Shown: positions 10,985 to 13,103 of the stretch, one piece after another
Numbering within the stretch: position 1 is the stretch's first letter
How the letters are laid out: every line of letters starts with the position of its first letter
Source: a virus
Lineage: Duplodnaviria > Heunggongvirae > Uroviricota > Caudoviricetes
Direction: 5' to 3' (one strand)
IMG/VR virus record: IMGVR_UViG_2698536506_000009
DNA: 23,022 nt
Notes under the pieces: generated by a model
What the model was told of the DNA's origin: nothing
The model's database searches: none
The model's input: the letters and a program-made list of their open reading frames with translations, nothing else
Translations under genes and position numbers: made by a program

Positions 10985-11090
10985 ATGATTTTTGCTGAAG
11001 ATGGCGACATGATGTTTGCATTTTTCAAAAAATATGGATAAAATTTTTTCAACGATGGGCTTTGTATACCCGACGTTAAGAAAAAGTAGA

Positions 11091-11120
11091 AAACCCGCTG
11101 ATGAGCGGGTTTTGTGCTTT
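11091..11120. terminator. Bidirectional rho-independent terminator between quuQ and cspF
   Basis: AAACCCGCT, loop GATG, AGCGGGTTT followed by TGTGCTTT; A-run on the other side. Could be the tR'-like terminator of the late promoter transcript. Confidence 0.5.
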
Positions 11121-11405
11121 AAATGGGGCAATGGTAATGTTGAATCTCATCCCGGGACTCATGTCTGTTAACTTATTATTTAGCTGGTGACTTGGTTATT
11201 TGCCTGATGTTTAAAATGTTTTCTTCCAGTACAATGTCCCTAAACACAATGAGTCTGCTTATTATATTATTAGCAGAGCTATTACGGCCAAAGTACAGCA
11301 TAAGCTTTTAAAGCCAATCAACCAGTCATCAAGACAGACGGGGTTATTCATAAAAACTCTCCATGTGTGATCCGATGGGGCCTGAAATTAAAGCTTTAAT
11401 ATAGC

Positions 11406-11618
11406 TCATGAAAGGTAAACATTGGCAGCTGAAGGGCCACGCAGACCATTTATCCGGCAAAATTCCACGCGTAATCCGGTGGTAATTTCTTCTGCATCGC
11501 GGAGATTGAGCGCTGAAACATGAAGCTGGACATCGATACGACCATCGGATGGGGTGATAAGACCCTTGCCGCTTTTGCCGTCAAAGGTTTTGACAATTCC
11601 TGTCATTTTACGGGACAA
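11406..11618 (-). CDS. cspF: Cold-shock-domain protein CspF-like
   Basis: 70-aa [32 protein letters not shown]... Confidence 0.85.
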
Positions 11619-11918
11619 AAAAATTCCTTAATACTGATAACTTGGCGCACTATACACACGTTCCTGAAGAAAGCTATAGTTTTTTGATGGGGTTGAAGAT
11701 GGCTGGATGTCTAAAATAAACATTGCTTCATATGTTCAACTATGCGTTAATGATTGCGTCGGTTTGAAGAACAGACGATATACGAAGTAGTTTACTAAAG
11801 CAGTTCTCATTTCAGGTGTTATTCACTTATTCCTTCTTTGAGTCTCTCCAATTAAGTACGAAGTCGTTTCTGTTATGCAAACCATTTATGCCGAAAGGCT
11901 CAAGTTAAGGAATGTAGA

Positions 11919-12134
11919 ATGTCAAATAAAATGACTGGTTTAGTAAAATGGTTTAACGCTGATAAAGGTTTCGGCTTTATTTCTCCTGTTGATGGTAGTA
12001 AAGATGTGTTTGTGCATTTTTCTGCGATTCAGAATGATAATTATCGAACCTTATTTGAAGGTCAAAAGGTTACCTTCTCTATAGAGAGTGGTGCTAAAGG
12101 TCCTGCAGCAGCAAATGTCATCATTACTGATTAA
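11919..12134 (+). CDS. cspB: Cold-shock protein CspB
   Basis: 71-aa [41 protein letters not shown]... with a long upstream leader typical of cold-shock genes. Confidence 0.9.
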
Positions 12135-12415
12135 AATTCATCGCTCGTCTGTATACGATAACGAAGAAGGCTGATGCCTGAGTAGAGATACGGACAGAGT
12201 AGTGAATATTGGATCTCTTTAATAAAAAGTAAGGAGGTCCAATACATGAAACAATGGCTAGCATATTTGGCAAAATCTTAATCAGGAAAAGTATGCTAAC
12301 CATTGTGGTGAAGTGCAGGTTTGCTGCATGAATAGTTTTACAGCAGAAGCTAACTGCTGGCATGGCAAAACAAAGTGCGTAAGTGGATGACTCCCACAAA
12401 AAGCACCACAATCTC

Positions 12416-12440
12416 AAACCCGCTCAGGCGGGTTTTTTAT
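12416..12440 (+). terminator. Rho-independent terminator
   Basis: AAACCCGC, loop TCAG, GCGGG followed by TTTTTTATT. Confidence 0.6.
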
Positions 12441-12497
12441 TATCTGCTTTAAATATATTATTAAAATATAAAAAATACTTGTTACTAATAAAATCAA

Positions 12498-12668
12498 TCA
12501 GGCTACAGCTTTAAGATTTGTCTGGAATACTTTGTTGCAATGAGGGCAGATCAAAAGGGCACCTTTTTGTACTCTTGAAAAACTGTGTTCTGACTCTTGG
12601 GTGCAGTTTGGGCAGGAACATTTAACGAGATAATTACGGCGTGATTTTGAGTTTTTACGTTCTGACAT
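12498..12668 (-). CDS. ynfU: Small zinc-ribbon protein (56 aa)
   Basis: MSERKNSKSRRNYLVKCSCPNCTQESEHSFSRVQKGALLICPHCNKVFQTNLKAVA with CxxC-x20-CxxC; AGGA 7 nt before the ATG. Symbol is a tentative recollection of a K-12 Qin small protein. Confidence 0.45.
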   Translation of the reverse strand: MSERKNSKSRRNYLVKCSCPNCTQESEHSFSRVQKGALLICPHCNKVFQTNLKAVA

Positions 12669-12887
12669 AGGCTTTTCCTGTATAAATGGCCGTATACAGT
12701 ACACTAAATATGAAAACATTTCTCGTATTATTATTTTATATATGACTTTCTTTCAAAATAATTACCCACATTTTTAATGTGTATGTTTTTTTAGCGCCGT
12801 TGAGAACAACGTGTGCTGTCAAAACTACCCCGTAGACTCCGATCTTTTCAAACATATTGCACCATCCGTGTACATCGGGGTGAGGAT

Positions 12888-13103
12888 ATGAAATCAATGG
12901 ATAAGTTAACAACAGGTGTTGCCTATGGCACATCGGCGGGTAATGCTGGTTTCTGGGCATTGCAGTTACTCGATAAAGTAACTCCGTCACAGTGGGCTGC
13001 AATCGGTGTGCTGGGTAGCCTGGTTTTTGGCCTGCTGACGTATCTGACAAATCTTTATTTCAAGATTAAAGAAGACAGGCGTAAGGCTGCGAGAGGAGAG
13101 TAA
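12888..13103 (+). CDS. essQ: Phage-21-type pinholin (class II holin)
   Basis: 71-aa [74 protein letters not shown], closely resembling the S21 pinholin as I recall it. Confidence 0.85.

Follow-up and report, generated by a model that had tools for sequence, protein, structure and literature searches.

Gene organization of the interval between quuQ and essQ

The DNA analysed here, referred to as the window, is a stretch of 23,022 nucleotides from a virus of the Caudoviricetes (IMG/VR record IMGVR_UViG_2698536506_000009). The present study concerns the interval between its antiterminator gene quuQ, also called ydfT (10232-10984, plus strand), and its holin gene essQ (12888-13103, plus strand). 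Window positions 10200-13500 were 100% identical to Escherichia coli K-12 MG1655 and correspond to the cryptic prophage Qin (NC_000913.3 1,640,585-1,642,489; ydfT-ynfS-cspF-cspB-ynfU-essQ). The NC_000913.3 coordinate equals 1,653,473 minus the window coordinate, and the strands are swapped. No sequence difference from K-12 Qin was found, and all of the genes were already annotated there. At least 80% of this region was present in 1,613 of the 5,426 complete E. coli genomes.

According to the K-12 annotation, ydfU ends at 10218 on the plus strand and is followed by quuQ, which encodes a lambda-family Q antiterminator of 250 aa. The distance from the end of quuQ to the essQ ATG at 12888 was 1,903 bp. 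A sequence-only reading of this DNA had described a gap of about 1.9 kb that held cspF, cspB, a zinc-ribbon open reading frame (ORF) and two hairpins, with cspF and the zinc-ribbon ORF antisense to late transcription. All of these elements were recovered where they had been placed. On the minus strand were cspF (11406-11618; Pfam CSD, E = 5.6e-22) and the zinc-ribbon gene, which is ynfU (12498-12668; b4776; Pfam YnfU, E = 3.5e-31), and on the plus strand was cspB (coding sequence, 11919-12134; Pfam CSD, E = 1e-31). The reading had missed a fourth gene, ynfS (11262-11351; 29 aa; Pfam YnfS), which sits downstream of cspF on the same strand. Both hairpins, at 11090-11113 and 12416-12435, were located between convergent units.

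A predicted lambda-type late-control cassette downstream of quuQ

The lambda-type Q cassette has been described as a Q gene followed by the late promoter PR', a sigma-dependent pause element, a terminator and the late genes (PMC9388147). Near 10960-11040, where the sequence-only reading had suggested looking for a promoter and a qut site, a predicted lambda-type PR' and pause element were found at 11016-11059, followed by the terminator tR'. The predicted late promoter (11016-11044, plus strand) was identified by a promoter scan and by its lambda register, and consisted of a -35 element TTGCAT (11016-11021), a 17-nt spacer and a -10 element TAAAAT (11039-11044), beginning 32 nt past the quuQ stop codon. 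The -10 element was followed by the six nucleotides TTTTTC and then by AACGATGGG at 11051-11059, the predicted pause element (AACGAT + GGG). The lambda counterpart reads TTGACT, 17 nt, TAAATT, TGACTC and AACGATGGG in the same ungapped register. From the -35 element through the GGG, 32 of 44 bases were identical between Qin and lambda, and the pause element was the same in both sequence and position. The composite pattern of a -10 element, six nucleotides and AACGATGGG occurred once in the window, compared with 0.07 occurrences expected by chance. If the lambda pattern holds, 11051 would be the transcription start, and the polymerase would pause near 11066-11067 (+16/17).

The conservation of this cassette was evaluated by aligning eight loci, namely Qin, the phages 2H10, Tritos and HannyBb with the Q region of Qin, and the Stx2c phage LC727877, SKA5, 689R6 and Salmonella phage F1055, in which Q was 90-94% identical to QuuQ. 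The promoter and spacer were kept in all eight loci, and so were the pause element, the 5' hairpin and the terminator hairpin, which was G+C-rich and followed by a T tract. The pause element was nearly invariant across Q-cassette homologues, and the 17-nt spacer was nearly invariant among phages with this Q.

The terminator tR' and the predicted short PR' RNA

The first hairpin of the interval (11090-11113) was composed of AAAACCCGCT, GATG and AGCGGGTTTT, and was followed by TTTTGTGCTTT, so that the hairpin and T tract together spanned 11090-11120. It was detected by a terminator scan, was G+C-rich with T runs on both sides, and folded at -23.9 kcal/mol (z = -9.3). At the tR' position, all eight loci had a hairpin rich in G+C and a T tract, with stem sequences that differed between them. 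In MG1655, Term-seq placed a dominant curated 3' end at genome position 1642356(-), which is window position 11117 (Adams 2021, PMC7815308). This end was reported in LB at OD 0.4, in LB at OD 2.0 and in M63 glucose, each condition comprising about 900-1,200 curated ends (PMC7815308). Judging from this end, the PR'/tR' unit appears to be transcriptionally active in K-12.

The sequence-only reading had called this hairpin a bidirectional terminator. The T runs on both sides agree with that description, but the element is primarily part of the Q cassette, being its conserved tR', and not a terminator of the csp genes, and its use on the minus strand was read from the letters of the hairpin. In that orientation, it might possibly serve as the terminator of cspF-ynfS.

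The 3' end at 11117 fits a terminated PR' RNA of 67 nt (11051-11117, plus strand), which would be the analogue of the lambda 6S RNA if transcription starts at 11051 as in lambda. The predicted RNA folded at -30.4 kcal/mol (z = -6.7) and contained a 5' hairpin, a AAGAAAAAGUAG stretch with four A-R-N triplets, and the terminator hairpin with its U tail. It is shorter than its lambda counterpart, the terminated PR' RNA of lambda being about 194 nt long. A further Term-seq 3' end on the late strand was located at 11285, 168 nt past tR' and antisense to ynfS, in one condition. This end may reflect some tR' readthrough in uninduced cells.

Boundaries and contents of the cargo slot

Similarity among the eight loci stopped right past the T tract, which marks the left boundary of a cargo slot. 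On the right, homology to more than 400 phage holin regions started at 12876, 12 nt before the essQ ATG. Based on these two limits, the slot extends from about 11121 to 12875. Its contents varied widely behind the same cassette. In SKA5, the cassette was followed by a 258-nt ORF and then by the lysis genes, while 689R6 and F1055 carried unrelated ORFs. The Stx2c phage LC727877 carried a lipoprotein-like ORF, a methylase, two tRNAs and the A and B genes of stx2c, and the csp cargo was found in Qin, 2H10, PhiR42_1, PhiR63_1, Tritos and HannyBb. Among the 5,426 E. coli genomes, the cassette was present in 2,373 and the csp cargo in 1,619 at a coverage of at least 80%.

The base composition of the slot was 38.1% G+C, compared with 47-52% for Q, ydfU and the lysis genes, a difference that supports a foreign origin of the cargo. 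Across the interval, values were 36-39%, with 47-53% to its left and right. The traits of morons were observed here, namely presence or absence between genes that are adjacent in relatives, deviating base composition and expression from a repressed prophage. The sequence-only reading had called these genes morons, which is supported; the slot that they occupy, bounded by Q and the holin, varies among phages with the same cassette.

Several complete E. coli genomes had the slot interrupted by insertion sequence (IS) elements of the IS1, IS3, IS4, IS5, IS21, IS200 and IS600 families. In HannyBb (5253-8880), Q was followed by a degenerate PR'-like copy and about 1.7 kb annotated only with tiny ORFs. 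Past this segment lay a second Qin-like PR'/tR' copy and then the csp cargo.

Three apparently self-contained units within the slot

The slot consisted of three apparently self-contained units, two of them on the minus strand (cspF-ynfS and ynfU) and one on the plus strand (cspB), with promoters predicted from the sequence for cspB and ynfU. For the first unit, the YnfS protein has been detected by tagging in uninduced K-12 (PMC6001520). Tritos lacked positions 11158-11415, which hold ynfS and the last codons of cspF. The Rfam search gave no significant cspA-leader match for cspF (14 bits, E = 0.93).

In cspB, a full-length match to the cspA thermoregulator (RF01766) was obtained at 158.8 bits, compared with a gathering score of 78, covering model positions 1-428 and window positions 11758-12150, which we took as the transcription unit. 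A cspA-type thermosensor leader of 161 nt therein preceded the coding sequence. A putative cspA-like promoter (TTGCTT-17-GTTAAT; 11723-11751, plus strand) could be read 7 nt upstream of the start of the leader match at 11758. The complete leader and the plausible promoter of its own suggest that cspB is an autonomous unit. A Term-seq 3' end has been placed at 11839, inside the cspB leader, and the dominant in vivo 3' end of cspB at 12247-12249 (genome 1641226/1641224(-)), with scores of 0.6-2.5 million (PMC7815308). The 3' untranslated region (3'UTR; 12135-12249) contained two strong hairpins (-43.2 kcal/mol, z = -6.9), and the dominant end lay 6 nt past the second of them, without a U tract. 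The position could be a processed end or the end of a 3'UTR-derived RNA.

The sequence-only reading had assigned cspB a terminator of its own. A terminator hairpin followed by TTTTTTATT was indeed present at 12416-12435 (12416-12441 with its tail), 280 nt past the cspB stop codon, with a fold of -12.8 kcal/mol (z = -4.0), but the dominant 3' end of cspB was at 12247-12249 instead. On the back of this hairpin, Term-seq placed a minus-strand 3' end at 12413 (PMC7815308). This end fits ynfU, and the hairpin is also bidirectional.

The ynfU gene encodes a zinc-knuckle protein of 56 aa, which exceeded in abundance all other small proteins that ribosome profiling had newly identified in K-12 (bioRxiv 10.1101/511675). 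Its predicted promoter (TTGAAA, 18 nt, AATAAT; 12727-12756, minus strand) matched at 10 of 12 positions and was the best-scoring match of the promoter scan.

Two kinds of candidates in the interval were rejected. An ORF of 11 codons at 12246, preceded by a perfect TAAGGAGGT Shine-Dalgarno sequence, was not considered a gene because TAAGGAGGT is the 3' arm of the 14-bp hairpin that ends the dominant cspB RNA. The sub-threshold Rfam matches (Trp leader, isrK, P9 and others; E = 0.2-0.9) were regarded as noise driven by the terminators.

QuuQ is a lambda-family Q protein with additional CxxCxGxG repeats

QuuQ was assigned to the lambda Q family by the Pfam Antiterm domain (PF03589; 181 bits, cut-off 26.7). 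The alignment with lambda Q in the Protein Data Bank (7UBM) gave E = 4.6e-36 and included the C-terminus as well as the N-terminus that forms the nozzle. Within aa 113-200, QuuQ contained four CxxCxGxG repeats (CEHCSGTG, CQHCHGKG, CRGCKGKG and CGRCNGNR), whereas lambda Q contains two. In addition, a DnaJ_CXXCXGXG zinc-finger match was found at aa 148-193 (E = 1.3e-8). The repeats suggest that the arm of QuuQ that contacts DNA and sigma is probably longer than that of lambda Q, and it may bind two zinc ions. The quuQ gene was an intact ORF.

Probable late transcription across the csp interval

Collectively, we consider it likely, with a probability of roughly 0.8, that the interval comprises a Q-dependent cassette (11016-11120) and a slot of three autonomous morons, which is crossed by late transcription on induction. 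In the repressed or cryptic state, PR' would fire and the polymerase would stop at tR', giving the 3' end at 11117 and the 67-nt RNA. The lysis genes would be insulated by this termination. In the lysogen, the moron genes would be expressed from their own signals, and the convergent units would share the hairpins at 11090-11113 (tR') and 12416-12435. If an intact relative were induced, Q would, as in lambda, load at the paused complex. The Q-modified polymerase would then ignore tR', the cspB hairpins and the terminator at 12416, run head-on through cspF-ynfS and ynfU, and reach essQ-ydfR-rrrQ-rzpQ and beyond. As the sequence-only reading had supposed, a polymerase coming from the Q region would meet two terminator hairpins, and also two antisense units, before the holin. 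Under such transcription, cspB and, further on, cspI would be co-transcribed as passengers, and the antisense genes would be dampened. Once loaded with Q, the polymerase is reported to pass pause sites and terminators for thousands of base pairs (PMC9388147).

Phage genome records support this interpretation indirectly. That of PhiR42_1 was 99.97% identical to window positions 3640-18185 (14.5 kb), continued into lambda-like terminase, portal and capsid genes, and carried a quuQ 100% identical to that of Qin. The same layout from Q to the holin was found in the records of 2H10, Tritos, PhiR63_1 and HannyBb. Our literature search found no paper on the PhiR phages. Since PhiR42_1, 2H10 and Tritos are phage genome records with this layout, late transcription presumably crosses the csp interval, and readthrough would be the likely route to the lysis genes.

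Several points weigh against this interpretation. Only 11 of 17 positions of the spacer, which in lambda is the site of the Q-binding element, matched between Qin and lambda, and this difference, together with the probably longer zinc arm, makes the action of QuuQ at the Qin PR' less certain. The supplements of the Cappable-seq and SMRT-Cappable-seq studies contained no matching start coordinates for 11051 or for 12720-12887. In the Term-seq listing, there was no minus-strand 3' end at tR', where only plus-strand use is documented, and no plus-strand 3' end at 12416-12435. In the literature on Qin, we found no report of Q-dependent expression, or of QuuQ being made or active in K-12.

According to a second view, the K-12 cassette is a relic. 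In such a relic, Q would never be produced or would not work, readthrough would not occur, and the small genes would have been domesticated by the host, with the prophage hairpins serving as their terminators. In favour of this view, the annotation of Qin is that of a cryptic prophage, the csp interval of several strains has received IS elements, and the morons are expressed without induction. On the other hand, quuQ is intact and identical to its PhiR42_1 homologue, and the PR'/tR' unit appears active. We regard this view as possible but on balance unlikely. It is a statement about present-day K-12 rather than about the architecture, and is compatible with a cassette that is read through in intact relatives.

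A third view concerns the cold-shock genes, which the sequence-only reading had suggested might be under phage late control. For cspF, ynfS and ynfU, this proposal is untenable because they are antisense to late transcription, which would interfere with them and not express them. The only sense gene in the interval, cspB, has a cspA-type leader and plausibly a promoter of its own. Together with the downstream cspI (14806-15018, plus strand; cspA-type leader, 14660-15045), it would be carried on the late transcript, each gene retaining its own cold-responsive control. In its stronger form, this view gives the cold-shock genes a role in the late programme itself, with readthrough as a significant source of CspB, and also of CspI, in lytic growth; the proteins might, for instance, chaperone late RNA when the temperature is low. 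It is favoured by the sense orientation of both genes inside the late operon, by the retention of the csp arrangement at 96-100% identity in phage genome records, and by its occurrence in 1,619 of the 5,426 E. coli genomes. However, leaders of the cspA type limit translation at 37 °C, and cspB has such a thermosensor leader and a predicted promoter. The cspF, ynfS and ynfU genes run in the wrong direction, the cargo behind this Q cassette is an unrelated one in other phages, and part of the csp unit has been lost in Tritos. The literature on Qin yielded no expression data. A significant contribution of readthrough to CspB and CspI is therefore doubtful.

The predicted PR' RNA was also considered as a possible small RNA. 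The StxS RNA of Shiga-toxin phages is likewise a short, constitutive, terminated PR' RNA in a lysogen, with a different sequence (PMC7547250). It seems improbable to us that the 67-nt RNA acts in trans as a functional small RNA in E. coli K-12, in the manner of StxS. The proposal that late readthrough delivers CspB and CspI to aid phage growth in the cold was judged a weaker alternative than this small-RNA reading.

Finally, it is very unlikely that the lysis genes are uncoupled from Q by a promoter of their own just upstream of the holin, with the Q cassette yielding only a short RNA, since the evidence for it, the sole plus-strand promoter-like match close to the holin in the promoter scan (12735-12762, 9/12) and weak binding of RNA polymerase holoenzyme in the essQ-cspB spacer by genomic SELEX (PMC5493296), is set against promoter-like matches that occurred at chance level in this A+T-rich DNA (9 found versus 6.3 +/- 2.7 expected), a homology across hundreds of phages that starts 12 nt before the ATG so that no conserved promoter travels with the holin, and the lethality that an unregulated holin promoter would presumably have in a lysogen. 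A separate holin-proximal promoter, which the sequence-only reading had named as the finding that would speak against readthrough, was thus without support.

Comparison with known systems

The Qin cassette shares with lambda Q/PR'/qut/tR' (6S RNA) the Pfam family of Q, the spacing of the -35 element, 17 nt, the -10 element, 6 nt and AACGATGGG, and a downstream terminator. The sequence-only reading had stated that the holin directly follows Q in lambda and phage 21. This statement was not correct, as the gap is 676 bp in lambda and 366 bp in phage 21, compared with 1,903 bp in Qin. The gap of phage 21 includes two tRNA genes, and QuuQ does not belong to the Q family of that phage.

In Stx phages (Q - PR' - tR' - tRNAs - stxAB - S), cargo occupies the same slot past the terminator. 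The Stx2c phage LC727877, whose Q is 94% identical to QuuQ, had the same cassette, and its positions 5998-10701 held Q, PR'/tR', the methylase, tRNA-Met-like and tRNA-Arg genes, and stx2c A and B, with stx2c several kilobases past the cassette. In these phages, the cargo consists of sense toxin genes that depend on late transcription, whereas three of the four cargo genes of Qin run antisense and the remaining, sense-oriented one is under control of its own. In DLP12/434B, an antisense porin moron, nmpC, and an IS5 lie between Q and an S21-type holin, giving a gap of 3,058 bp. 434B is a viable, plaque-forming phage with clear plaques, and both its Q sequence and its cargo differ from those of Qin. 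We had suspected 434B of carrying Qin DNA, but the DNA it carries is that of DLP12, and we cite it solely as a precedent.

Cargo genes between Q and the holin, such as stx, nmpC and tRNAs, are textbook features of lambdoid phages. The layout of Qin is ordinary among them, since the same cassette precedes stx2c and the gap of 434B holds an antisense porin gene and IS5. The genes, their location in the prophage and the general phenomenon were already known. The coordinates of PR', the pause element and tR', which are without annotation in the retrieved K-12 records, follow directly from the comparison with lambda. What is added here is an explicit set of coordinates for the predicted Qin late promoter, pause element and terminator, and the boundaries of the cargo slot. 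This addition matters little, as the region belongs to the best-annotated bacterial genome. With its cassette shared by Stx2c phages, where it lies ahead of stx2c, Qin in K-12 could be used as a safe model of this cassette. The name Qin reportedly derives from the lambda qin111 hybrids, which are reported to have received Q and lysis functions from this prophage (Espion et al. 1983). If this is true, it would be direct evidence that the K-12 segment is functional in a phage that is viable.

The cspF-cspB pair is a paralogue of the divergent chromosomal pair cspH-cspG of K-12, as judged from sequence comparison. The alignment of the two pairs was colinear, took in the shared promoter region and showed 76% identity over 635 nt. 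The chromosomal pair has no Q or lysis flanks, and the ymcF-ymcE-gnsA set follows cspG there, while in Qin the corresponding set follows cspI.

Neighbouring features

The first gene of the lysis cassette, essQ, encodes an S21-type holin (PF04971, E = 4.4e-34) whose N-terminus carries the dual-start motif MKSM. In the K-12 annotation, ydfR, rrrQ and rzpQ/rzoQ lie 3' of essQ on the plus strand. A second cargo block was found past the lysis genes at 14660-16000, comprising cspI (Rfam cspA-type leader match, 112.8 bits), ynfQ, ynfR, ynfN and gnsB. This block was colinear with the chromosomal cspG-ymcF-ymcE-gnsA at 73-74% identity. Outside the interval, Rfam also matched a sok antitoxin RNA adjoining hokD and, further 3', an IS009 RNA (4741-4912, 19482-19680).

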